This document shows positions 5-58,052 of a DNA stretch of 64,000 nt, in pieces. Made by a program: the position numbers and the translations under genes. The DNA is from Anaerovoracaceae bacterium (GTDB lineage Bacteria; Bacillota; Clostridia; Peptostreptococcales; Anaerovoracaceae), in assembly GCA_045599945.1 (NCBI GenBank), contig JAZRWY010000029.1, positions 6-64,005 on the forward strand. Reading direction: 5' to 3'. Each line of letters begins with the position of its first letter. The stretch's first letter is position 1. The notes under the pieces are model-generated. The model was not told where the DNA came from, ran no database searches, and saw nothing but the letters and a program-made list of their open reading frames with translations.

Positions 5-79
5 TGGAGGCGACACCCGGATTTGAACCGGGGGATAAAGGTTTTGCAGTCCTCTGCCTTACCACTTGGCTATGTCGCC
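5..79 (-). tRNA. tRNA-Cys (anticodon GCA)
   Basis: The reverse complement reads GGCGACA TA GCCA...CTGCAAA...CCCGG TTCAAAT CCGGG TGTCGCC T CCA. It has a perfect 7-bp acceptor stem, a GCA anticodon and an encoded CCA. The anticodon stem has an A31/A39 mismatch. Confidence 0.88.
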
Positions 80-105
80 TCAACGAGGCAAGCCTCATAA
101 AAAAT

Positions 106-182
106 TGGCGATCCGGAACGGGCTCGAACCGTCGACCTCCAGCGTGACAGGCTGGCATTCTAACCAACTGAACTACCAGGCC
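106..182 (-). tRNA. tRNA-Asp (anticodon GTC)
   Basis: The reverse complement reads GGCCTGG TA GTTC AGTTGGTTA GAAT G CCAGC CTGTCAC GCTGG AGGTC GACGG TTCGAGC CCGTT CCGGATC G CCA. The cloverleaf is canonical, but the acceptor stem has a C3/A70 mismatch and two G-U pairs. Confidence 0.85.
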
Positions 183-187
183 ATAAA

Positions 188-263
188 TGGTGGGCGTAGC
201 AGGGCTCGAACCTACGACCCCCTGCTTGTAAGGCAGGTGCTCTCCCAGCTGAGCTATACGCCC
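188..263 (-). tRNA. tRNA-Val (anticodon TAC)
   Basis: The reverse complement reads GGGCGTA TA GCTC AGCTGGGA GAGC A CCTGC CTTACAA GCAGG GGGTC GTAGG TTCGAGC CCTGC TACGCCC A CCA. The acceptor stem is perfect. Confidence 0.92.
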
Positions 264-18200: not shown

Positions 18201-21764
<3,564 letters not shown>

Positions 21765-22966: not shown

Positions 22967-24499
22967 TTATTCTAGTGCTACATTAAGCCCCAGAACACTC
23001 TCTGCTTCTTTTGCAAGTTCTTCCGCTTGTGTCTTTGTCTGCACCGCAGTTTCCTGATTGTCCTTCAGTTTCATGACCATCGGCCGCCCGACAATCTTTT
23101 CCGCCTTGCTCTCCATGTTTTCTCTGCTGTTTCCCAGCAGTTCCAGAACTGCACTGTTGCAGGATTCCACAACAAAGGTATCTCCCTTTACTTCTGTGAT
23201 GGAACAGCTGGTGCGCATCATCATAAGACTCGGCTGGTCTGCTGCAGCCTGGACAATGAGATTTCTCCGGAGCTTTTCCAGCTCAGCGACAGCATCTTCT
23301 GCTGCAGGTTTTTCTTCCTTCTTCGCAGCAGGTACCTCCTCCTGTTTCTTTTCAGGTTCCGCCTTCTTTTCTTTCGGTGCAGGATTCATCACTCTGACCG
23401 GCACCTTCTGCATTTCCTCATAAATGGATGACATTTTTACAATGGCAAGTTCCAGCAGGATTCTCGGCTGCGTAGACCATTTGGCATCCGCAATCGCTCT
23501 GGAAAGTTCCATGATGCAGGTGCTGATCTCGCTGACACCCAGCGTATCCGCCTGACTTCTGATTCTTGCAGCATTCTCCTCCGAAATATTCAGCATGTCC
23601 TCCGGAGATGCAATGTATTTTGCGATCAGAAGGGCCCGGTAATGGGCAAGCCAGTCCTTCATGAGCTGACGGACTTCCTTTCCCTCTGCAAGGACCTGAT
23701 TCAGAATGACAAGGGCTTCTGCCGTGTCATGGATTGCCACATGATGTGTCAGTTCAATGAATACTTCCTCCGCCGGCGTTCCCAGAAGTTCCAGAACATC
23801 ATCTCTGACGATTTCCGTTTTCCCTCCGGAAAGACACTGGTCCAGAATGGACAGACAGTCTCTGACAGAACCGTCTGCATTGACTGCGATGATGCCCAGC
23901 GCTGCATCAGAAATGGCAATTCCTCTTTCTGTACAGATCTCCCGCATGCCTTTCTTTAAAAGGTTTTCAGATACTCTTCTGAAATCCAGCCGCATGCATC
24001 TGGAAAGAATCGTTGCCGGAAGCTTCTGCGGCTCAGTGGTCGCCAGGATGAACATGACATGCTCCGGCGGTTCCTCCAATGTCTTCAGAAGCGCATTGAA
24101 TGCACCCGCGGAAAGCATGTGCACTTCATCGATGATATATACTTTTTTCCTGCCGATGGCAGGCGGATATTTTACGCTTTCCCTAAGCTCACGGATATTT
24201 TCCACACCATTGTTGGATGCTGCATCGATTTCTATGACATCAATGAACGTGCCGTCCTTGATTGCCCGGCAGCTGGCGCAGGTACCGCAGGGGCGCGCAC
24301 CTTCAGAAAGACAGTTCACGCCCTTAGCCAGAATTCTGGCTGTCGTCGTCTTGCCGGTCCCTCTTGTTCCGCATAGAAGATAGGCGTGTCCGACCTTGTC
24401 GCTCTCCAGCTGATGCCTGAGTATCCTGACAATATGATCCTGCCCGAGAATCTCATCGAAGACCTCCGGGCGGTATGCTCTGTATAAAGCCTGGTACAT
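22967..24499 (-). CDS. dnaX: DNA polymerase III subunit gamma/tau
   Basis: Begins MYQALYRAYRP; also contains GTRGTGKTTTARI, a zinc module (CGTCASC) and IDEVHML. The longer ORF start at 24577 was rejected because it would run into the SRP RNA. Confidence 0.93.
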   Translation of the reverse strand: MYQALYRAYRPEVFDEILGQDHIVRILRHQLESDKVGHAYLLCGTRGTGKTTTARILAKGVNCLSEGARPCGTCASCRAIKDGTFIDVIEIDAASNNGVENIRELRESVKYPPAIGRKKVYIIDEVHMLSAGAFNALLKTLEEPPEHVMFILATTEPQKLPATILSRCMRLDFRRVSENLLKKGMREICTERGIAISDAALGIIAVNADGSVRDCLSILDQCLSGGKTEIVRDDVLELLGTPAEEVFIELTHHVAIHDTAEALVILNQVLAEGKEVRQLMKDWLAHYRALLIAKYIASPEDMLNISEENAARIRSQADTLGVSEISTCIMELSRAIADAKWSTQPRILLELAIVKMSSIYEEMQKVPVRVMNPAPKEKKAEPEKKQEEVPAAKKEEKPAAEDAVAELEKLRRNLIVQAAADQPSLMMMRTSCSITEVKGDTFVVESCNSAVLELLGNSRENMESKAEKIVGRPMVMKLKDNQETAVQTKTQAEELAKEAESVLGLNVALE

Positions 24500-24526
24500 A
24501 ATCTGCTCCCAATCAATAAATAGATA

Positions 24527-24690
24527 GATTGCCCTTTGATGACCCCGCGAGAAAGAAAAGGCTGATCTGCGGCACATAGGCGCTTCCGCTTATTGCTGCT
24601 TCCTTCCGGACCTGACAAGGTTCACAGAGTCCTATTGCGCAGGACCCGATCAGTCAGGCGAAGCCATCAAAGGGCAATGAAATTGTCTAC
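24527..24690 (-). ncRNA. ffs: signal recognition particle RNA (ffs/scr), short form; ends approximate
   Basis: The minus strand contains the universal domain IV motif GTCAGGTCCGGAAGGAAGCAGC. A closing 13-bp helix pairs TTGCCCTTTGATG with CATCAAAGGGCAA. The position upstream of dnaX matches Firmicutes. Confidence 0.85.
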
Positions 24691-28914: not shown

Positions 28915-31113
28915 CTATATTTTTTCAATCGGCGCGATGTCCTTTGCCAGTTTTTTCAGACCGACAGATTCGAACATGATGCTTGCAACCTTTCCATCCA
29001 CTTCAATGACTAAGCCTTCTCCGAATTTCGCATGCTTCACCCGGTCTCCGCTGCTTAACTGCAGACCAGATCCTGCTGCCTTTTTTTCAATGGAGGACTT
29101 GGCATATTTCAGCGAATCAAACGGTTTCTCATGGGGTCTGCCGCCATATCCGTCAATTCCTCCGCCGTTTCCGAAGCGGTCTCCCGGCTTTCTTTCATAT
29201 GCTGCATCTCCATCCATGAAATGTCTGTCAATCTCACGGACAAATTTGGATTCTCTTGTATAATCGGTATGTCCAAACATGGTACGTACCTGGGCGGATG
29301 TAAGGAACAGACGCTCCTTTGCTCTTGTCATGCCCACATAGCAGAGTCTTCGTTCCTCTTCCAGCTTATCCTCCGACTCCAGATTCCGCCACCCCGGAAA
29401 GAGGCCGTCTTCCATTCCCGGCATGAATACTACCGGAAATTCCAGCCCCTTGGCAGAATGCAGGGTCATCATCACCACCGCATCCTCCGAAGGATCATGA
29501 TTGTCTATGTCTGCCATAAGCGCCAGTTTTTCCATGAAATCGTTGAGCGAAAGATTCGGATCCTGGCTTTCCATGTCAGCAATGACAGACTTGAATTCCA
29601 GAATGTTTTCCAATCTTCCCTCTGCTTCCACAGTGCCAACATCCACCAGTGCCTGGTAATATCCTGTATCCGACAGCAGTCCGTCATAGATGTCAGATAC
29701 TCTCAGATTCTCTTTTTCCGTGGCATACTCATTCAGACAGTTTACGAGTTTTCGAACCAGCGGACCGGACCTGGAGGAGAGGCTGCTCAGCACCTCTTCA
29801 TCGCACATGACTGCAAAGAGCGATTCTCCTCTGACGCGGGCCAGCGTCTGAAACTTTTCCAGTGACTTCTGCCCGATTCCTCTTTTCGGCTCATTGATGA
29901 TTCTTTCAAATGCCAGATCGTCCGACGGATTGGCAACCAGACGCATGTATGCCATCATGTCCTTGATTTCCCTGCGGTCGTAATATCTCAATCCTCCCAG
30001 CACCCGGTACGGAATGTCCGCCCTGGAAAGGGCCTCTTCAAAGGTTCTGGACTGGGCATTGGTCCTGTACAGAATGGCAAAATCGCTGTATCTCATCTCA
30101 CTGGTCCGGATCAGTTCAATTTCCTTTGCAATATATTGCGCCTCTTCCCTTTCATTATCCAGCCGGGAATATTCCACTTTCTTTCCTTCTTCCGCCCGGG
30201 TCCAGAGTTTCTTGTCCTTTCTCTGGCTGTTTCTGGAGATGACACTGTGGGCAGCCTCCAGAATGTTTCCGGTGGAGCGGTAGTTCTGTTCCAGCTTGAT
30301 GACCTTCGTATCCTGAAAATCCTTTTCAAATTCCAGTATGTTCCGGATGTCTGCGCCTCTCCACTGGTAGATGCACTGGTCGTCATCCCCTACCACGCAG
30401 ATGTTCCGGTATCTGTCTGCCAGCAGCTGGATCAGTTCATACTGAATGGCATTGGTGTCCTGGTATTCATCCACCATGATATAGCGGAATCTCTCCTGGT
30501 ATTTCTGCAGAACCATTTCATTTTCCCGAAACAGCTTGACTGCATTGAGAAGAAGATCGTCAAAGTCCATGGCATTATTCTTCTGCAGTGCTTTTTCGTA
30601 TGCACAGAAAACGTCATATACGCTCTTGGCCTTATATTGATCTCTGGCTTCAAGAAGATAACCCTCCGGCCCCATTCCTCTATTTTTGAAGGAGGAGATG
30701 ATGCTCAGATAATATGCCGGTTTCTTTTTTTCCTTTTCCAGGCCCAGCTCCTTCAGGATATTCTTTACCACAGCCTTCTGATCTGCCGGATCATAGACTG
30801 CAAAATTTCTGTCATAGCCGATACAGTCCGCATGCATGCGAAGGAAACGAAGGCACGCGGAATGAAAGGTAAGAATCCACATGCCGGTGGTATCTCCCAC
30901 CAGCTGCTCTACTCTATCCTTCATTTCTCCTGCTGCCTTGTTTGTAAATGTCACGGCAAAAATGCTATATGGACTGACACCTTCCTCCCGGATCAGGTGT
31001 GCGATTCTATGTGTCATGGTGCTGGTCTTGCCAGAGCCCGCACCTGCCAGTATGAGGAGGGGGCCATCCTTGTGCAGAACAGCTTCCATCTGTTTTTCAT
31101 TCAGCTGATTCAT
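28915..31113 (-). CDS. pcrA: ATP-dependent DNA helicase PcrA (UvrD family)
   Basis: Begins MNQLNEKQMEAV after an AGGAGAA SD. Contains AGAGSGKT, VDEYQDTN, LEQNYRST and a C-terminal Tudor-like tail. Confidence 0.95.
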   Translation of the reverse strand: MNQLNEKQMEAVLHKDGPLLILAGAGSGKTSTMTHRIAHLIREEGVSPYSIFAVTFTNKAAGEMKDRVEQLVGDTTGMWILTFHSACLRFLRMHADCIGYDRNFAVYDPADQKAVVKNILKELGLEKEKKKPAYYLSIISSFKNRGMGPEGYLLEARDQYKAKSVYDVFCAYEKALQKNNAMDFDDLLLNAVKLFRENEMVLQKYQERFRYIMVDEYQDTNAIQYELIQLLADRYRNICVVGDDDQCIYQWRGADIRNILEFEKDFQDTKVIKLEQNYRSTGNILEAAHSVISRNSQRKDKKLWTRAEEGKKVEYSRLDNEREEAQYIAKEIELIRTSEMRYSDFAILYRTNAQSRTFEEALSRADIPYRVLGGLRYYDRREIKDMMAYMRLVANPSDDLAFERIINEPKRGIGQKSLEKFQTLARVRGESLFAVMCDEEVLSSLSSRSGPLVRKLVNCLNEYATEKENLRVSDIYDGLLSDTGYYQALVDVGTVEAEGRLENILEFKSVIADMESQDPNLSLNDFMEKLALMADIDNHDPSEDAVVMMTLHSAKGLEFPVVFMPGMEDGLFPGWRNLESEDKLEEERRLCYVGMTRAKERLFLTSAQVRTMFGHTDYTRESKFVREIDRHFMDGDAAYERKPGDRFGNGGGIDGYGGRPHEKPFDSLKYAKSSIEKKAAGSGLQLSSGDRVKHAKFGEGLVIEVDGKVASIMFESVGLKKLAKDIAPIEKI

Positions 31114-31213
31114 TCTACTTTTCTCCTGATATATCAATTCTAGTATACCACAAAAACAGAACACAAAGAATAGTAGTTACAGAAATAGGCAGCCGCAATA
31201 ATATGCCTGCCTT

Positions 31214-46520: not shown

Positions 46521-46762
46521 TTTTTCCTCCTGCGATTTTAATTTTTGTACAGTTTTCGCTATGCTTGTACAAGGGGTTCAAACCCTGAAATTTCAACGTG
46601 TAAGGGTTATTTGCCTACTTACTACACGTCGCCGTGTGTTTCCTTCGTTTTTCACACAGAAAAAATCAGGCGAATCCCTACGCATCCGTCCAGCGGATAC
46701 AATTGCTCCATGGAAATATCCAGATAGCACTGCAACTTCCCATATCTTCGCCTAAAGCAAGC
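46521..46762 (-). promoter_or_regulatory. ~240-nt structured 5' leader of the S10 operon with a terminator-like element
   Basis: In the leader RNA, AGGCGAA (46753-46747) pairs with TTCGCCT (46674-46668) and is followed by GATTTTTTCTG. Enclosed sub-hairpins include ATCCG-ctgga-CGGAT. Downstream lie ACACG-GCGA-CGTGT and the palindrome CTTGTACAAG. Confidence 0.55.
46589..46653 (-). repeat. leader segment A (copy of a duplicated ~45-65-nt element)
   Basis: The plus strand reads aatttcaacgt...cgccgtgtgtttccttcgtttttc. It is similar to copy B at both ends. Confidence 0.5.
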
Positions 46763-46768
46763 CTTTAC

Positions 46769-46797
46769 ATTGTAACAAAGGAGTTGCAGCATTGCAA
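46769..46797 (-). promoter_or_regulatory. S10 operon promoter (TTGCAA-17-TGtTACAAT)
   Basis: The minus strand reads TTGCAA tgctgcaactcctttgt TACAAT with an extended -10 TG. Confidence 0.7.
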
Positions 46798-46844
46798 CCC
46801 CTTCCAGAAAACTTTTTTAACTTTTTTTACGCTCAAAACATTGT

Positions 46845-46890
46845 AATTTCAACGTTTATGTTCACACACCGCCTCGTGTTTCCGTTTTTC
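46845..46890 (-). repeat. segment B, a shortened copy of leader segment A located upstream of the S10 promoter
   Basis: The plus strand reads aatttcaacgt ttatgttcacacac cgcctcgtgtttccgtttttc. It shares the 11-mer aatttcaacgt and the cgcc(t/g)(c/t)gtgtttcc..gtttttc block with copy A. Confidence 0.5.
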
Positions 46891-47044
46891 TCCTCCTCTT
46901 GTATGCCAAATCCGTTTTTCCCATTCAAACTACCATATGTAGGGGCTCGGAAACGGTGAAAAAATAGATATTTTCTGACTATTTTCTCCTCCCGATCCAA
47001 AGAGCAGGAGTCATATTAAAACATATTTCTTAAAAAAAATGATT

Positions 47045-47072
47045 GAAAAATACAAAGTCGGCATATTTGTAT
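47045..47072 (-). terminator. weak AU-rich intrinsic terminator candidate after the GTPase-NYN gene
   Basis: The minus strand reads ATACAAA-tatgccgac-TTTGTAT followed by TTTTC. Confidence 0.4.
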
Positions 47073-47099
47073 GGTTTTTACAGCAAACAAGTTTGTTTC

Positions 47100-49712
47100 C
47101 TATTCCTTGTTCATCGCCTCATTGAGAAGCCTTCCCAGCTCGAAGCTCTTCTCTCTTCCGTAACTTTTGATTTCCCGGCGCATCTTTTCAAGAGCATCAT
47201 CTACTTCTGCCTTGAGTTCCATTGCCGTTACTCTCTTTGCTCCTGCACCAAAACTCATAATTTGCACCATGTAATCCGATGACGCAACCAGCACGTCTGC
47301 TTTTTTTCCCAGCTGCGCTGTGAGTTTTTCAATATATGCATCCGCAGTCTGATCCTCTCTGGTATATACAACCGTCAGATCATCGAATTCCTCCACAGAG
47401 CCGATGTTTCCTTTCGCCTTGTATCCATCAAATACAAGGATAATCTTTCGATCCGTATATGCATCAAAGGTCCTGAAAAGCTCTATCATTTCTTCTCTGG
47501 CATAGGATATGACATCTGAAAGGTTCTCCTTCCAGGCAAACATGCAGTTGTATCCGTCGATGAGAAGGTATTTCTCCTTCTCTCTTCCTGCATGGGCTGC
47601 GTAGTTATCGTAGTTCACATGGCCTGCGCTTTCCGCAAGCATTCTGTCCTGGTCCTGCTTTGGCGCCCACCTCTTTGAATGAGGCTTTTTCTTTCCATAG
47701 GTCTTCTCAAAGATGGCCTTCAGCTCATCATCATATACTCCTGCGCTGCTGCTCCTCTCAAAAGAAGAACCTTCCTCTTCACCCTTGACATATCTGTTTA
47801 TGTCAAAAGGCTTGAGATGCATGTAATCCTCCACTTCATTCCATGGTACATAAAACCCTGCGCCATGGGTACAGAAGATGGACCCCGGCTGGTTTTCCAT
47901 GTCCGCCTCAGGATCGTATCCTCTCTCCGCTATGACTTCTTCCGCATTATGGCATTCCTCATATCCGGACAGTCTTGCAAAAAATGAACCTCTGCCCTTT
48001 GTATATGATACAACCTCGCTGTGGTATTCATGCATGGTTGATACTGGGCCTGTACCTGTAAGGATTGTAAGGTCGCCATCCGTCACAGGCTCGTCAAAAC
48101 GGCCGTGCATTCTCTGGATATCTGTCATGGCACGTCCGGCAGATTCGGACGGAACGGTAAGCCTGAAGGAATATACCGGTTCAAGAAGCACCGGTTTGTT
48201 TCTCATCAGCCCATGCCTTATCGCCCGGTATGTGGACTGCCTCATGTCTCCGGGCTCTGTATGCTTTAAGTGATCCTTTCCGGTCAGAAGCGTGATCTTC
48301 ATATCTGTAATGAATGAACCTGTAAGAACGCCCCTATGCTGCTTTTCCATCATGTGGGAAAGAATCAGCTTCTGCCAGTGAGGCTTTAATACATCGTTAT
48401 CTGCAATGGTATCAAATATGAGGCCCTCTCCTCTTGGAAGCGGCTCAAGGAGCAGATGTACCTCCGAATAGTGCTTAAGAGGCTCATAATGGCCGACTCC
48501 TTCTGATACTCCCGATACAGTCTCCGCATATACTATACTTCCTGCACCAAAGGAAACATCCATTCCAAATCTCTCAAGTATAACTTCGTGCAGTATCTCT
48601 GTCTGCACCTTGCCCATCAGGCACAGATTGACGGACGAATCTTCTTCATTCCAGGAGACCTGAAGCTGAGGGTCCTCTTCTTCGAGCTGCTTCATTTTCC
48701 TGTAGGCGTCCTGCATGTCAGTTCCGGAAGGAAACTCCGCCCTGAATCTGAGCGGAGGAATCATCTCCGGAAAATACATTCCTTCTGCATTTCCAAGCCC
48801 CTGGCCGCAATATGTCTTTTCAAGTCCGGCAACTGCTATTACAGAGCCTGCTTCTGCTTTCTGCACCTCGACGTACTTCCCTCCGTCGTAGATTCTGATT
48901 CTATCCACCTTCTCCTGAAGTTCTTCCACCACTTCCTTCGCCGACAGGCTGCCGCCGGTCAGTTTCATGTGGGTAAGACGGGTGCCTTTATCGTCTCTTG
49001 TGATTTTGTAAACGATGGCTCCAAACCCGGGTGAATCATATGCGCATCCTGCATAATCGCCAAGAACAGCCATGAGCGTATCGATTCCTTCCATCTTCAG
49101 GGCCGAACCGAACACAACAGGATGGAGCCTTCCTTCATGGAACAGCTCCGCCAGATCTTCTTTTCCCGGTTTGTTTCCTTCAAGAATCTCATCCAGCAGC
49201 CTTCCCGATTCATCCATCATGGCAATCTCTTCGTCATCCATGTCCGATACATCCTGCGCGCCCTCAGAAAGCTTCTCCCGAATCTCTGCAAAAACAGCAT
49301 CTCTATCTGCACCGCTCTGGTCCATCTTATTGACAAAGATGATTACCGGTATGCCGCTTTTCCGAAGGAGGTTCCACAGGGTATCCGTATATCCTGTGAT
49401 GCCGTCCGCCTGCGAAATGACAAGCACAGCAGCATCCAGTATCTGAAGGGTTCTCTCCATCTCCGATGAAAAGTCCATATGTCCCGGAGTATCTACAAGC
49501 GTAAGCTCCGTATCTCCAATCTGAAAGATGGCCTGCTTCGAATAGATGGTGATCCCTCTCTTCTTTTCAAGTTCCTCTGTATCCAGAAAAGCATCTCCCT
49601 GGTCCACGCGTCCTGCTTTTCTTATTTTACCCGCATGGTAGAGCAGCGCCTCGCTGAGCGTGGTCTTGCCGGCATCTACAGGGGCCAGTATCCCAACTAC
49701 TGCCTTTTTCAT
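47100..49712 (-). CDS. TetM/EF-G-like translational GTPase fused to a C-terminal Rae1/YacP-type NYN (PIN-like) ribonuclease domain
   Basis: The N-terminal G motifs are APVDAGKTT, RGITI, DTPGH and NKMD, followed by EF-G/TetM-like domains II-V to about aa 640. The C-terminal 157 aa (47103-47573) contain KYLLIDGYN, ILVFDG, EDQTADAYIEKL and LVASSDY, resembling B. subtilis YacP. The start is taken at the ATG of MKKAVVG; TTG alternatives lie 6-12 nt upstream. Confidence 0.85.
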   Translation of the reverse strand: MKKAVVGILAPVDAGKTTLSEALLYHAGKIRKAGRVDQGDAFLDTEELEKKRGITIYSKQAIFQIGDTELTLVDTPGHMDFSSEMERTLQILDAAVLVISQADGITGYTDTLWNLLRKSGIPVIIFVNKMDQSGADRDAVFAEIREKLSEGAQDVSDMDDEEIAMMDESGRLLDEILEGNKPGKEDLAELFHEGRLHPVVFGSALKMEGIDTLMAVLGDYAGCAYDSPGFGAIVYKITRDDKGTRLTHMKLTGGSLSAKEVVEELQEKVDRIRIYDGGKYVEVQKAEAGSVIAVAGLEKTYCGQGLGNAEGMYFPEMIPPLRFRAEFPSGTDMQDAYRKMKQLEEEDPQLQVSWNEEDSSVNLCLMGKVQTEILHEVILERFGMDVSFGAGSIVYAETVSGVSEGVGHYEPLKHYSEVHLLLEPLPRGEGLIFDTIADNDVLKPHWQKLILSHMMEKQHRGVLTGSFITDMKITLLTGKDHLKHTEPGDMRQSTYRAIRHGLMRNKPVLLEPVYSFRLTVPSESAGRAMTDIQRMHGRFDEPVTDGDLTILTGTGPVSTMHEYHSEVVSYTKGRGSFFARLSGYEECHNAEEVIAERGYDPEADMENQPGSIFCTHGAGFYVPWNEVEDYMHLKPFDINRYVKGEEEGSSFERSSSAGVYDDELKAIFEKTYGKKKPHSKRWAPKQDQDRMLAESAGHVNYDNYAAHAGREKEKYLLIDGYNCMFAWKENLSDVISYAREEMIELFRTFDAYTDRKIILVFDGYKAKGNIGSVEEFDDLTVVYTREDQTADAYIEKLTAQLGKKADVLVASSDYMVQIMSFGAGAKRVTAMELKAEVDDALEKMRREIKSYGREKSFELGRLLNEAMNKE

Positions 49713-49713
49713 C

Positions 49714-51027
49714 CTATTCAACAATTTCTCCTACCAGGCTGAATGTGTTTGCGCCTGTAATCCTTACATTGACCATTTCTCCTGCCTTTGAGTTCTCAGC
49801 CTTGAAATTTACCAGCTTAAAGCCTTCTGTTCTTCCTGAGCAGGTAAACAGGTCATTCTTTGATACTCCATCCACCAATACCTGGAATGTCTTTCCTATG
49901 CATGCCGCATTCTTTGCTGCCGCACTTTCATTGATTACATCGACGAGTCTTTCAAATCTCGCATGCTTGATATCTTCCGGAATCTGGTTTTCCATCTTTT
50001 CTGCAGGCGTTCCTTTCCGGATGCTGTAGAGGAAGGTAAAGGCTGAATCATAGCCTACCTCTCTGCAAAGAGAGAGCGTATCCTCAAAGTCTTCTTCCGT
50101 CTCTCCCGGAAATCCTACAATGATATCCGTACTCATGGTGATATCCGGCACTGCCGCCTTCAGTTTCCGGACAAGATCCAGATATCTTTCTCTATCATAT
50201 TTTCTGTTCATTTCCCGAAGCACTTTACTGGAACCCGACTGCACAGGAAGATGAATGTTGTTACAGAGCTTATCGCAGTCTGCAAAAGCCTGTATGAGTC
50301 TGTCCGAAAGGTCCTTCGGATGAGATGTCATGAAACGGATTCTTTCAAGACCCTCCACGCCGTTCAGCGCATAGATGAGATCTGTAAAGTCATAGCCGCT
50401 TCCGCCGTCATATGAATTGACATTCTGTCCCAGAACCGTAATCTCCCTGACACCGTCTGCAGCAAGAGTTCTTACTTCTTCCAGTATGTCCTTGGGCTTT
50501 CTGCTCTTTTCTCTGCCCCGCGTGTATGGAACGATGCAATATGTACAGAAGTTGTTGCATCCATACATGATATTGACAAAGGCCTTATGCTGAAAGAGCC
50601 TCTTTGACGGAAGACCTTCTACGATTTCTTCTCGGTCCGGAAGAATCTCCATCTGTCTCTTTCTTGTCTCTGCTGCATCATCCAGAAGTTTCGGCAGGTT
50701 ATGTATGTTATGCGTTCCAAAGATGATATCCACCCATGGGTATTTTACTTTCAGTGTATCTGTCACATGTTCCTGCTGCATCATGCATCCGCATACGCCT
50801 ACGATGAAGTTTTCATCTGCCTCATGCTTATGCTTCAGCTGCCCAAGGGTTCCAAAGAATCTCTTGTCTGCATTTTCCCTGATGGAACATGTATTGATGA
50901 TGAGAACATCTGCCTCTTTCCGGTCTTCGCAGTGCACATAGCCTCTTTCCTCAAGCATTCCTGCCATGATTTCAGAGTCATGTTCATTCATCTGACATCC
51001 GAATGTTATGATATGGTATTTCTTCAT
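49714..51027 (-). CDS. miaB: tRNA-i6A37 methylthiotransferase MiaB (radical SAM)
   Basis: Begins MKKYHIITFGCQMNEHDSE and contains a CNNFCTYCIVP radical-SAM cluster and a TRAM C-terminus. Confidence 0.94.
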   Translation of the reverse strand: MKKYHIITFGCQMNEHDSEIMAGMLEERGYVHCEDRKEADVLIINTCSIRENADKRFFGTLGQLKHKHEADENFIVGVCGCMMQQEHVTDTLKVKYPWVDIIFGTHNIHNLPKLLDDAAETRKRQMEILPDREEIVEGLPSKRLFQHKAFVNIMYGCNNFCTYCIVPYTRGREKSRKPKDILEEVRTLAADGVREITVLGQNVNSYDGGSGYDFTDLIYALNGVEGLERIRFMTSHPKDLSDRLIQAFADCDKLCNNIHLPVQSGSSKVLREMNRKYDRERYLDLVRKLKAAVPDITMSTDIIVGFPGETEEDFEDTLSLCREVGYDSAFTFLYSIRKGTPAEKMENQIPEDIKHARFERLVDVINESAAAKNAACIGKTFQVLVDGVSKNDLFTCSGRTEGFKLVNFKAENSKAGEMVNVRITGANTFSLVGEIVE

Positions 51028-51058: not shown

Positions 51059-51087
51059 ATTATACCCCATATGCCTTGAAATTCCAA
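51059..51087 (-). promoter_or_regulatory. promoter of the miaB / GTPase-NYN operon (TTGGAA-17-TATAAT)
   Basis: The minus strand reads TTGGAA tttcaaggcatatgggg TATAAT. Confidence 0.6.
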
Positions 51088-51092
51088 ATATG

Positions 51093-51118
51093 AAAAAAAG
51101 GCCCTGCAAAGCAGAGCC
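51093..51118 (-). terminator. intrinsic terminator after hppA
   Basis: The minus strand reads GGCTCTGC-ttt-GCAGGGCC followed by TTTTTTT. Confidence 0.85.
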
Positions 51119-51132
51119 CGAATAGTCACGTA

Positions 51133-53151
51133 TTAAAGTAAGCCGCCGATCTGTACGAACAGTGGAGCAAATACCAGTGATACGATTGTCATCAGCTTGA
51201 TCAGAATGTTGATGGAAGGACCGGATGTATCCTTGAACGGGTCACCAACGGTATCGCCTACTACTGTAGCCTTATGGGTTTCTGAACCCTTTCCGCCATA
51301 GTTTCCTTCTTCAACATACTTCTTTGCATTGTCCCATGCGCCGCCTGCATTTGCCATCATGATGGCAAGAAGCACGCCGGCTGCAAGAGCACCTGCAAGC
51401 ATGCCGCCAAGAGCCTTAACGCCAAGTACGATACCAACCAGAAGCGGACATACAATGGCAATGAGACCAGGCATGATCATTTCCTTCAGAGCAGCACCGG
51501 TTGAGATTGCTACGCATTTCGCATAGTCAGGCTTGGAAGTTCCTTCCATGATTCCCTTGTCTTCTCTGAACTGTCTTCTTACTTCCTCGATCATCTGGTT
51601 TGCAGCTCTACCTACGGAATTCATGGTAAGTGCTGAGAACAGGAACGGAAGCATTGCACCGATGAATAATCCAATGATTACGATTGGCTCCAGAAGGTTT
51701 ACGCCTTCGCCGGTAAGTCCTGTAACTTCTGCATAGGATACGAACAGTGCCAGTGCAGTAAGTGCTGCAGAACCGATGGCAAAGCCTTTTCCGATTGCAG
51801 CTGTTGTATTACCAACTGCATCCAGCTTGTCTGTAATTTCTCTTACATTATCCGGAAGCTCTGACATTTCAGCTATGCCGCCGGCATTATCCGAAACCGG
51901 ACCGTAAGCATCAACGGCTACTGTCATGCCTGTAGTGGAAAGCATTCCTACTGCTGCAAGAGCAATGCCGTATACGCCTGCAAATGTATATGCAACATAG
52001 ATACCAATACAGATGCAGATGATTGGCCATAATGTTGACATCATGCCAACGCCCATGCCTGAAATGATGGTTGTTGCGGAACCTGTCTGAGATTCTTCTG
52101 CAATCTTCTTAACGGATTTATAATCTTCTGATGTATAGATTTCTGTAATCTTACCAATGGCTATACCTACGATCAGACCGGCAATGATTGCTGCTGCATA
52201 GGATAAGTTGTGAAGCATTACCTTGGAAAGAACCAGAGCTGCAACGATTACAATCGCACCTGAAATATATGTACCTGTGTTCAGAGCTGCTGACGGATTT
52301 CCGCCATCCTTTCCTCTTACACATAAGATTCCAACAACGGAAGCAAGAACACCGACTGCTGCAAGAACCAGCGGGAATACTGCTGCTGCAGTTTCTGAAA
52401 ATGCATTTCCGGATGCTGCTGCTGCAACTGCTGCCAATGTGATGGCTGAAATGATGGAGCCAACATAGGATTCGAACAGGTCAGAACCCATTCCGGCAAC
52501 GTCGCCAACATTATCTCCTACGTTATCTGCGATAACTGCAGGGTTTCTAGGGTCATCTTCCGGGATTCCGGCTTCTACCTTACCTACCAGGTCAGCACCA
52601 ACGTCTGCTGCCTTTGTATAGATACCGCCGCCTACTCTTCCAAATAAAGCCATGGATGATGCACCAAGACCAAATCCTGTTGCACACTGCATCACTGTTG
52701 CAAGCTTTAATACGCAGAATACGCATCCAAGACCAAACAGACCAAGGCCTGCTACGCAAAGTCCCATGACTGCACCCGAACGGAATGCAACCTTCAGTGC
52801 CTTTGGCATGCCGCTTTCCATTGCAGCATTTGCTGTTCTTACATTACCCAGTGTTGCAACTTTCATTCCGAAGAATCCTGCAAGAACAGATAAGCATGCA
52901 CCGATTACATAAAGAACTCCTGTCTTCCAGCTGATTGCTGCTGTAATCAGGATGAACAGGCAAACGATTACGATAATCATTACTTTGTATTCCTTATACA
53001 GGAATGCCATTGCTCCTTCTCTGATAAAACCAGAGATTTCCTTCATTCTGTCGGTTCCTTCCTCCTGCTTTCCGATCCATGCTGCAAGTGAATATGCAAC
53101 AATCAGACCGATGAGAGCAGCAATGGGAACCAAGACTGCCAGTATTTTCAT
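51133..53151 (-). CDS. hppA: membrane-integral H+/Na+-translocating pyrophosphatase
   Basis: 672 aa with about 16 TM segments. Contains [27 protein letters not shown] and [14 protein letters not shown]. Confidence 0.96.
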
Positions 53152-53770: not shown

Positions 53771-55824
<2,054 letters not shown>

Positions 55825-55833
55825 TTCTGCCTC

Positions 55834-57018
55834 CTATTTATCGTTCAGGCATGCAATTCCAGGAAGAACCTTTCCCTCAAGGAATTCCAGGGATGCGCCG
55901 CCGCCTGTTGAAATATGCGTCATTTTATCTGCAAGACCTGCTGCTTCAACTGCTGCAGCAGAATCGCCTCCGCCGATTACAGTGACTGCATCGGACTGGG
56001 CCAGAACTTCTGCAACTGCATACGTTCCCTTTGCGAAATTCGGCATTTCAAATACACCCATCGGTCCGTTCCAGACCACCGTCTTTGCCTTCTTCAGTTC
56101 TTCACTGAAAAGTTCAATTGTCTTCGGCCCTATGTCAAGTCCCATGAGGTCAGCAGGGATGCTGTCTCTGTCATATGCTGCTGCCGGTGAATCGTTGTTG
56201 AATTCTGCTGCACATACTGCATCTACAGGAATCAGCATCTTTACGCCTTTCTCTTCTGCTTCCTTCAGAAGTTTTCCGGCCAGCTCGATGCTTTCCTCAT
56301 CAAGAATGGAAGTTCCGATTTCAAGACCCATCGCCTTGAAGAATGTATATGCCATGCCGCCGCCGACAATGAGTGTATCCACCTTGCCCAGGAGATTCTC
56401 AATAACAGGAATCTTGTCTCCGACCTTTGCTCCGCCCATGACTGCGCAGAACGGTCTCTGCGGATTCTCTACGGCTTCTCCCAGGAATTTCAGTTCCTTT
56501 TCAATCAGGAATCCCGATACAGCAGGAAGATAGTCTGCTATGCCCGCCGTGGATGAATGTGCCCGGTGTGCTGTTCCGAAAGCGTCATTTACAAATACTT
56601 CTGCCAGTTCTGCCAGTTCCTTTGCAAATACAGGATCGTTATCTGTCTCTCCCTTTACAAATCTGACATTTTCAAGAAGCATGACTTCTCCGCCCTTCAG
56701 TTCTTCTGCCGCCTTCCTGACTGCATCATCAACCACCGTTGGCGAAGTCACGAATTTCACTTCTTTTCCGAGAAGCTCTGCAAGTCTTTCTGCAACAGGT
56801 GCCAGAGAGTATTCCATCTTTGGCTCGCCCTTCGGTCTTCCCATGTGTGACATGAGGATGACTGCGCATTCCTGTTCCAGAAGATAATCCACTGTCGACA
56901 TTGCTGCCCGGATTCGGATATCATCTGTAATTTTTCCGTCCTTCATCGGAACGTTATAGTCACATCTGACGATGACCTTCTTTCCTTTCAGGTCAATATC
57001 TTTCACATTTTTCTTCAT
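55834..57018 (-). CDS. pgk: phosphoglycerate kinase
   Basis: Contains [20 protein letters not shown] and [13 protein letters not shown]. Confidence 0.97.
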
Positions 57019-57035
57019 GATACCATCCTCTTATC

Positions 57036-58052
57036 CTACTTGTTATCTTCTGCATACATGTGTCTGATCAGTCTCAGCAGATTGGAAGAATAGCCGAATT
57101 CGTTATCGTAGAAGGATACGAATTTGAACATCTTGTCATTGAGCTGGAATCCCTGTCTTGCATCGAAGATGGATGGACATGCGTCACCGATGAAATCGGA
57201 TGAAACCACTTCATCATCCACATATTCAATGACATCCTTCAGATATGTCTCTGAAGCTGCCTTGACCTTTTCGCAGACATCTTCATAAGTGGTTGCTGTC
57301 TTCAGTCTGATGTTCAGGTCAACAACAGATACATCAACGGTAGGTACTCTGTATGCGATACCTGTCATCTTTCCCTGTACGGATGGTATTACAAGACCAA
57401 CGGCCTTTGCAGCACCTGTCGTAGTAGGAATGATATTATTGAATACCGATCTTCCTGTTCTCCAGTCCTTCATGGATCTTGCATCAACAACCTTCTGCTT
57501 TGCTGTTGCTGAGTGGATGGTTGACATCAGACCTTCTTCAATTCCATAATTGTCTTCCAGAACCTTTGTCAATGGAGCCAGACAGTTTGTTGTACATGAT
57601 GCAGAGGAAACCACCTGATATTCCGGCTTATATTCCTGTTCATTGACACCATATACGAATGTCGGTGTTCCCTTATCCTTTGCAGGAGCAGAAATGATTA
57701 CTTTCTTTGCTCCTCCATTGATATGTACCATTGCCTTTTCTGTTGTATTGTATGCACCGGTTCCTTCCATGATATATTCAGCACCGCATTCGCCCCATGG
57801 AATGTCTGCAGCATCGCCGCAGCTGTATACAGGAACCTTCTTACCATCAATGATAAGACCGTTTTCATACTTGTCCAGTTCCTTAGGGAATCTGCCGAAA
57901 GTAGTATCATACTTGAGCATGTATACCATGTAATCCAGGTCTGAATTACGCATGTTGATGCCTGCGATTTCGAAATCAGGCATGTCCATGACCGCACGGA
58001 TAATTACTCTTGAGATACGACCAAAACCACTGATACCAAGTTTAATTGCCAT
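57036..58052 (-). CDS. gap: type I glyceraldehyde-3-phosphate dehydrogenase
   Basis: Contains GISGFGRISR and the active site SASCTTNCLAP. Confidence 0.96.
   Translation of the reverse strand: MAIKLGISGFGRISRVIIRAVMDMPDFEIAGINMRNSDLDYMVYMLKYDTTFGRFPKELDKYENGLIIDGKKVPVYSCGDAADIPWGECGAEYIMEGTGAYNTTEKAMVHINGGAKKVIISAPAKDKGTPTFVYGVNEQEYKPEYQVVSSASCTTNCLAPLTKVLEDNYGIEEGLMSTIHSATAKQKVVDARSMKDWRTGRSVFNNIIPTTTGAAKAVGLVIPSVQGKMTGIAYRVPTVDVSVVDLNIRLKTATTYEDVCEKVKAASETYLKDVIEYVDDEVVSSDFIGDACPSIFDARQGFQLNDKMFKFVSFYDNEFGYSSNLLRLIRHMYAEDNK

Follow-up and report, generated by a model that had tools for sequence, protein, structure and literature searches.

A translational GTPase joined to a Rae1/YacP-type NYN ribonuclease domain in an Anaerovoracaceae genome: a divergent member of a published but uncharacterised kind of fusion

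We analysed a stretch of 64,000 nucleotides (nt) from an Anaerovoracaceae bacterium (contig JAZRWY010000029.1), referred to below as the window, and describe here one of its genes, in which a translational GTPase resembling TetM and EF-G is followed, in the same polypeptide, by a ribonuclease domain of the Rae1/YacP type. Positions are given in window coordinates on the - strand, and residue numbers count from the ATG at 49712. The gene corresponds to a single uninterrupted open reading frame (ORF; 47100..49724, - strand), which encodes 874 amino acids (aa) if translation starts at the first TTG and 870 aa if it starts at the ATG, in agreement with the length of about 870 aa given in the initial annotation. 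The junction sequence showed an AGGAG located 6 nt upstream of the TTG at 49721; starting from this TTG, an 873-aa form is obtained, which is that of the public annotation (collection entry P0001, 100% identical). The gene and its parts were delimited as follows, partly from the predicted local distance difference test (pLDDT) scores of an AlphaFold2 model.

47100..49712, - strand: entire fusion gene, 870 aa when started at the ATG (47100-47102, stop codon; 49721 and 49724, alternative TTG starts)
49038..49712, - strand: G domain (residues 1-225; Pfam GTP_EFTU)
47946..49037, - strand: domains II-V of the EF-G/TetM fold (residues 226-589; Pfam EFG_III, EFG_IV, EFG_C)
47817..47957, - strand: mini-domain after domain V (residues 586-632; AlphaFold2 pLDDT 80-91)
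47571..47816, - strand: flexible charged linker (residues 633-714; AlphaFold2 pLDDT and column identity)
47103..47570, - strand: Rae1/YacP-type NYN ribonuclease domain and long C-terminal helix (residues 715-870; Pfam NYN_YacP)

In the Pfam search, GTP_EFTU was matched at residues 5-220 (E 6.6e-50), and EFG_III (330-389), EFG_IV (409-503) and EFG_C (508-589) were found above their cutoffs; EF-G_D2 gave a weak match, below cutoff, at 231-300. The NYN_YacP family (PF05991) was matched at residues 716-860 with an E-value of 7.7e-37 and 127.3 bits, for a gathering cutoff of 24.6, with positions 1-150 of the 166-position profile covered by the match. The AlphaFold2 model, built on an alignment of 78 sequences (mean pLDDT of 80.4, predicted template modelling score of 0.57), was confident for domains I-V and for the NYN domain, behind which it placed a long terminal helix. 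When this model was submitted to Foldseek, its body matched structures of EF-G, EF-G2 and aEF2 (E 2.4e-53 to 1e-45). All of the motifs quoted in the initial annotation (APVDAGKTT, RGITI, DTPGH, NKMD, LLIDGYN, ILVFDG, EDQTADAYIEKL and LVASSDY) were found in the ORF translation, and the covalent fusion of a TetM/EF-G-like GTPase with a Rae1/YacP NYN domain was upheld by the Pfam search and by alignment to Rae1. The five-domain layout was likewise recovered by Pfam and AlphaFold2, but not its extent to about residue 640: the canonical factor stops at about residue 589 and is followed by the additional mini-domain (586-632) and then by the linker (about 633-714). Neither a second NYN domain nor a second translational GTPase was found elsewhere in the 64-kb window.

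The distribution of the fusion was assessed by scanning one genome per GTDB species, using the family-specific residues 576-870 as the query. A confirmed fusion locus was found in at least 594 species-level genomes, at only 40-55% identity across these species. Carriers belonged to the Lachnospiraceae, the Oscillospiraceae, Ruminococcus, Monoglobus-like lineages and others, and included the cultured Intestinimonas butyriciproducens and Eubacterium xylanophilum ATCC 35991. The reading frame and the neighbourhood were checked at 80 main-clade species loci among these. GTPase and nuclease shared one intact frame at 75 of the 80 loci, with four others cut by contig ends and one exhibiting a frame change. 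A single intact frame in so many independent species assemblies rules out an assembly or frameshift artefact and, together with the breadth of the distribution, indicates that the fusion is under selection. Both GTPase domains and PF05991 were present in all of the best 120 homologs (47-83% identity). The window protein belongs to a divergent sub-clade, its nearest relative being 83% identical and the next at most 56%; in this sub-clade the G1 motif reads APVDAGKT, and elsewhere AHVDAGKT.

TetM-like-NYN_YacP fusions have already been described (Atkinson 2015, PMC4342817; Matelska 2017, PMC5499597), so that the novelty implied at first did not hold, given these two papers and the number of species genomes found here. 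With both modules in one polypeptide, in a member of the Clostridia, the window gene adds a new, fairly divergent member to this published but uncharacterised kind.

For a broader comparison, residues 1-640 were searched against 1.84 billion cluster representatives at 50% identity, and the best 150 were used. Among these best 150 representatives, 124 were fused and 23 were complete genes lacking the NYN domain. The NYN-less forms (for example P0187, P0193, P0217, P0221, P0229, P0265 and the loci L087 and L088, among others) were about 630-710 aa long and ended 1-30 residues past the mini-domain, with the same domain IV loops and the same block of Cys and His residues as in the fused forms. The two types were interleaved, and the NYN-less forms did not make up one clean sister clade. 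Two NYN-less loci were inspected (L087 and L088); both contained complete genes with unrelated neighbours, and neither an adjacent yacP nor a split GTPase-yacP arrangement was seen at either of them.

The C-terminal domain aligned with B. subtilis Rae1/YacP (PDB 5MQ8/5MQ9) with an E-value of 7e-19, and the direct comparison gave 38% identity over 128 aa (E 2e-23). In the alignment to 5MQ8, the Rae1 residues D7, D53, D81 and D104 paired with D719, D762, D791 and D813, respectively; D7 and D81 are the positions changed in the published catalytic mutant of Rae1, D7N D81N (PMC10351889). The four aspartates were invariant in 78 relatives and were kept in 123-124 of the 124 fused representatives. 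With PF05991 above its gathering score and the four acidic active-site residues present, the domain belongs to the NYN_YacP/Rae1 family.

The GTPase module contained the full set of G motifs, namely G1 APVDAGKTT, G2 RGITI (T55), G3 DTPGH (H78), G4 NKMD and G5 GSAL. With these motifs, the catalytic His included, and domains II-V in the order found in EF-G, it falls within the EF-G/EF2 branch of the translational GTPase superfamily. Residues D13, K16, T55, D74-G77, K129 and D131 were invariant in the 150 representatives, and the catalytic H78 was retained in at least 146 of 147. The best-conserved region was domain IV (about 393-505), with a mean column identity of 0.84, compared with 0.69-0.71 for domains G, II, III and V. 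At its tip, H408, E410, P411 and L412 did not vary in any of the 147 representatives, fused or NYN-less, and this speaks for a conserved contact in the decoding centre. The GTPase motifs and the nuclease acidic residues, initially reported as intact, are thus also conserved in orthologs, and both modules look active. Judged from its sequence, the GTPase core is an uncharacterised lineage of translational GTPases in its own right, most members of which carry a Rae1 domain.

Domain V was followed by the mini-domain, a confidently folded unit of about 45 aa consisting of a beta-hairpin between two helices, without any Pfam match. It occurred in fused and NYN-less relatives alike, with a mean column identity of 0.76 and the consensus CHN..EEVI...GSVFCxHGAGFxVPW..V..YMH. 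A recurrent set of Cys and His residues was observed (C587, H588, C614, H616 and H632), and the complete pattern CHCHH was present in 69 of the 150 representatives. Both Cys residues were kept in 125 representatives, only one in 23 and neither in 2. As the two Cys residues are not lost together, an obligate paired metal or disulfide site is without support, and a zinc or disulfide site in the mini-domain was not confirmed.

The linker, rich in Glu, Lys and Arg, had a mean column identity of 0.33, and the AlphaFold2 pLDDT was below 50 at residues 646-665 and 670-710. Across the 124 fused representatives, its length ranged from 39 to 192 aa, with a median of 87. Disorder, a variable sequence and a substantial length that is nevertheless maintained are consistent with a tether. 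One conserved motif, D-x-E-L-x-x-I-F-x-R/K-T-Y-G, was found within the linker at about residues 661-673 (window about 47694-47732, - strand); among the fused representatives, E663 was retained in 108, I667 in 113 and G673 in 98. This motif may be a docking helix.

The relationship to the tetracycline ribosomal protection proteins was assessed with NCBIfam models and structures. The best NCBIfam match was the generic model for these proteins, tet_protect (E 3.5e-126), with 421.9 bits for a cutoff of 775. The specific models were also below their cutoffs (tet_protect_M_W, 266.4 versus 1100; Tet(M), 230.6 versus 1420; Tet(Q), 255.7 versus 1425; Otr(A), 285.6 versus 900), as were the EF-G equivalog models (TIGR00484, 256.3 versus 659.4; NF009381, 290.2 versus 583). 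In a sequence search of the PDB, TetM ranked first (E 9.8e-69), with EF-G nearly equal (5.7e-68). The TetM loop III residues Y506-Y507-S508-P509 (YYSP) reportedly displace tetracycline. In the HMMER alignment to 3J9Y, they correspond to D480-H481-L482-K483 (DHLK), and the fusion family conserves H481, K483 and H484 at this loop instead.

On the genomic side, the fusion gene directly follows miaB, ahead of which a promoter-like site and the hairpin of a gene for an H+-pyrophosphatase (H+-PPase) were found.

49714..51027, - strand: miaB (tRNA i6A37 methylthiotransferase; NCBIfam TIGR01574, 553.7 bits versus a cutoff of 355.3)
51087..51059, - strand: sigma-70-like promoter TTGGAA-17-TATAAT before miaB (consensus scan, 10/12)
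51119..51099, - strand: terminator-like hairpin of the upstream H+-PPase gene (consensus scan)

The miaB stop codon (TAG, 49716-49714) lies one base before the fusion ATG at 49712, as had been pointed out initially. The two genes are, judged from this junction, translationally coupled. The miaB-fusion order was preserved, with an overlap of 4-8 nt, in six out of six members of the window's clade (53-83% identity; L081-L086), in which all flanking genes other than miaB differed. By contrast, miaB, S10, L3 and H+-PPase genes were all absent within 8-10 kb at the 80 main-clade loci. The pair is therefore a conserved two-gene operon restricted to the window's clade. It raises a possible link between the ms2i6A37 modification of tRNA and the fusion factor. 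The position of the gene next to the S10 operon, also highlighted in the initial annotation, is true locally but was conserved nowhere else examined: S10, L3 and H+-PPase were absent at five loci of the window's own clade as well, where the downstream genes all differed. A functional link to the S10 operon was accordingly rejected on both sets of loci, the adjacency being incidental. No family-wide operon partner emerged, the largest neighbour cluster, a MATE-type transporter, being present at 7 of the 80 loci.

The promoter that the pair had been said to possess at 51059-51087 fits the consensus better than any other site in the region (10/12) and follows the terminator-like hairpin, but the region contained 9 promoter-like matches versus 10.9 in shuffled sequences, that is, no excess, so that this promoter is plausible by its position alone. 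In the gap of 579 nt that separates the fusion gene from rpsJ (46521-47099, - strand), we observed no minus-strand terminator-like site, and a promoter-like site with an extended -10 was present at 46797..46769. Transcripts of the miaB-fusion pair may extend by read-through into the S10 operon. No structured RNA leader was detected in this gap, as judged by Rfam at the gathering threshold.

The window as a whole is core chromosome, with gap-pgk-tpi-eno, H+-PPase, miaB, the S10/spc/alpha ribosomal operons, pcrA, dnaX, signal recognition particle (SRP) RNA and PFOR; no mobile-element genes were found in it. The glycolytic gap-pgk-tpi-eno genes (53771-58052, - strand) lie upstream of the H+-pyrophosphatase gene (51133-53151). 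PFOR (18201-21731) and PcrA/UvrD (28915-31164) are found further downstream, in an ordinary core-genome context, and a bacterial small SRP RNA (24552-24651, - strand; 70 bits) adjoins dnaX (22967-24577). Three tRNA genes occupy the start of the window (8-263, - strand). A role as a defence-system effector was rejected, since neither the fusion protein nor MiaB matched any PADLOC defence model at E <= 0.001.

The interpretation of the fusion depends on what is known of Rae1. Work from 2025-26 places the Rae1 cut between stalled and collided ribosomes, at a distance of about 12 nt upstream from the A site (PMC12407103, PMC13622287); acting on collided ribosomes, it creates substrates for transfer-messenger RNA (tmRNA) and thereby feeds trans-translation (PMC13622287). 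Our leading reading, which we hold tentatively, is that the fusion is a two-module ribosome quality-control factor, in which the GTPase senses a stalled or collided ribosome and the tethered nuclease cuts the mRNA at its edge. The GTPase module would bind the ribosomal factor site and probe the decoding centre with its family-specific domain IV, thereby recognising either a stalled ribosome, with an empty or blocked A site, or one trapped by a collision. We infer that the substrate of the Rae1-type NYN endonuclease is mRNA, which would be within reach of the tethered domain either at the border of the ribosome bound by the GTPase or in the stretch between ribosomes that have collided. The cut would fall at the position used by stand-alone Rae1 and would leave a truncated mRNA on which tmRNA-mediated rescue could act. 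By binding and hydrolysing GTP, the factor would gate or time its stay on the ribosome and, in consequence, the cleavage.

A more specific version of this proposal is possible but on balance doubtful. According to it, the fusion family is a GTP-coupled form of the cleavage pathway that collisions or stalls trigger in the case of stand-alone Rae1 (CART): the GTPase would read an A-site state or a state trapped before translocation, and would license the tethered Rae1 domain to cut at the ribosome boundary. The fusion might then be the main or only Rae1 in much of the Lachnospiraceae and Oscillospiraceae, and the NYN-less GTPases might be the same sensor working with a free Rae1 in trans. If this were true, Rae1 would have a dedicated GTPase partner in some bacteria.

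Several points weigh against a quality-control factor of this type. The existence of NYN-less relatives with the same domain IV implies that the GTPase has a function of its own, which need not involve mRNA cleavage. At the 80 loci, no conserved neighbours connect the gene with tmRNA/SmpB or with further genes of ribosome rescue. As for Rae1 itself, no ribosome-bound structure exists, its binding being transient, and its ribosomal site is unknown (PMC13622287), so that any argument from geometry is qualitative. Finally, the statement of the initial annotation that no characterised member was known proved correct, as no functional study of any fusion member was present in the full-text literature searched; the recent Rae1 papers searched made no mention of a GTPase.

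The first of these points leads to an alternative that we regard as unlikely, in which the GTPase core performs a nuclease-independent function (A-site clearing or remodelling, or back-up of EF-G) and the NYN domain is a secondarily attached, partly dispensable passenger, with the fusion merely co-localising the two. It would account for the 23 complete NYN-less genes among the best 150 representatives, which share the domain IV loops and the mini-domain, are interleaved with the fused forms and, at the two loci examined, have no yacP beside them. A passenger would, however, be expected to decay, whereas the 124 fused representatives keep all four catalytic aspartates and the linker bears a conserved motif of its own.

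An equally improbable alternative is a factor for ribosome biogenesis, rRNA maturation or ribosome decay, in which the GTPase docks on ribosomes that are immature, damaged or idle and the NYN domain cuts rRNA or tRNA precursors. Such a pair would resemble the PIN nuclease Nob1 of eukaryotes, which works with the GTPase eIF5B/Fun12. The tether would equally allow the nuclease to reach rRNA ends on the 30S surface, and in the window's clade the gene is predicted to be co-transcribed with the tRNA-modification gene miaB. Moreover, NYN_YacP was originally predicted to act in rRNA or tRNA processing, yacP being found with mrnC and rlmB (PMC5499597, PMC4342817). Against this, the sole experimentally defined activity of a NYN_YacP protein is the translation-dependent cleavage of mRNA by Rae1 (PMC12407103, PMC13622287, PMC10351889), none of the 80 main-clade loci has the linkage to miaB, and no gene for RNA processing is conserved nearby.

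Delivery of the nuclease to the A site, as initially proposed, appears very unlikely, even though both modules are present and look active. The GTPase would dock like EF-G or TetM and, much as RelE does, the NYN domain would cut the A-site codon on the stalled ribosome. When EF-G or TetM is bound to the ribosome, the A site is filled by domain IV itself in all complexes known to us. In the fusion, domain IV is intact and is the best-conserved part, so that the NYN domain could not be in the A site at the same time; joined through a disordered linker of 39-192 aa, with no rigid connection, it would not be rigidly positioned either. The view of Rae1 as an established A-site mRNA endonuclease goes back to the 2017 model, recounted in PMC12407103, which placed Rae1 in the A site; this view is outdated, as the model has been revised and withdrawn by the laboratory that proposed it (PMC13622287).

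The suggestion that the fusion is a tetracycline ribosomal protection protein with an added RNase, and thus a new resistance mechanism, as speculated by Atkinson 2015 (PMC4342817) and as implied by database entries named TetM/TetW/TetO/TetS family or "ribosomal protection tetracycline resistance protein", is hardly credible despite tet_protect and TetM being the best NCBIfam and PDB matches: all models for these proteins score far below their cutoffs, with EF-G about equal to TetM, the drug-displacing residues of loop III are replaced, the short C-terminal helix of TetM gives way to a different mini-domain, the housekeeping context lacks mobile-element genes, and a spread over at least 594 species at such low identity fits old vertical inheritance and not a recently spread resistance gene. 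On sequence criteria (scores below the cutoffs, YYSP replaced by DHLK, core-chromosome context), the fusion is not a ribosomal protection protein. The TetM-type names given to the family are thus probably an over-annotation, and one that is probably systematic, with the possible effect that resistome counts from gut metagenomes come out too high.

It is only recently that Rae1 was identified as the nuclease with which Gram-positive bacteria cut mRNA on ribosomes that have stalled or collided, and its way of recognising them is not known (PMC13622287). A natural fusion of Rae1 with a GTPase, abundant in dominant Clostridia of the human and animal gut, suggests that recognition may involve the factor-binding site and the decoding centre. 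With the Rae1 work of 2025-26, the fusion becomes a concrete lead to how Rae1-type nucleases find ribosomes, and a non-hydrolysable GTP analogue or a GTPase-dead mutant could be used with it to trap the nuclease on ribosomes. The NYN-less lineage of translational GTPases, for its part, merits a name of its own.

Among known systems, the fusions catalogued by Atkinson 2015 and Matelska 2017 have the same architecture and occur in the same taxa, and the window protein differs from them in nothing of kind. TetM and TetO (PDB 3J9Y, 3J25, 4V6V) share the five-domain fold of translational GTPases with the fusion and are of similar length up to domain V, but the fusion exhibits the mini-domain of about 45 aa in place of a short helix, as well as the NYN domain and a core-genome context. 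EF-G and EF-G2 (fusA paralogues), which were the top matches in the fold search, have the G motifs and the domain order in common with it; however, the fusion lacks the G' insertion of EF-G (GTP_EFTU is matched in one stretch, 5-220, whereas the matches to EF-G models are split in two by a gap), its domain IV loops are family-specific, and it scores below the cutoffs of all EF-G models. To our knowledge, no collision nuclease is coupled to GTP. SmrB of E. coli and Cue2/NONU-1 of eukaryotes would share the proposed logic, in which a nuclease on stalled or collided ribosomes cuts the mRNA at the boundary and rescue follows (PMC13622287), but they have an SMR fold instead of NYN, and are recruited through collision-interface or ubiquitin-binding elements rather than by a translational GTPase. 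The closest counterpart of the nuclease is Rae1 (YacP) of B. subtilis, which has the NYN_YacP fold found at residues 715-860 of the fusion, the same four acidic residues and a long C-terminal helix after them. Rae1 is a free protein (181 residues in the crystallised chains) that binds the ribosome transiently and on its own, whereas in the fusion the NYN domain makes up the last quarter of a chain of 870 aa, where a conserved linker motif absent from Rae1 comes before it and a tether connects it to a GTPase.

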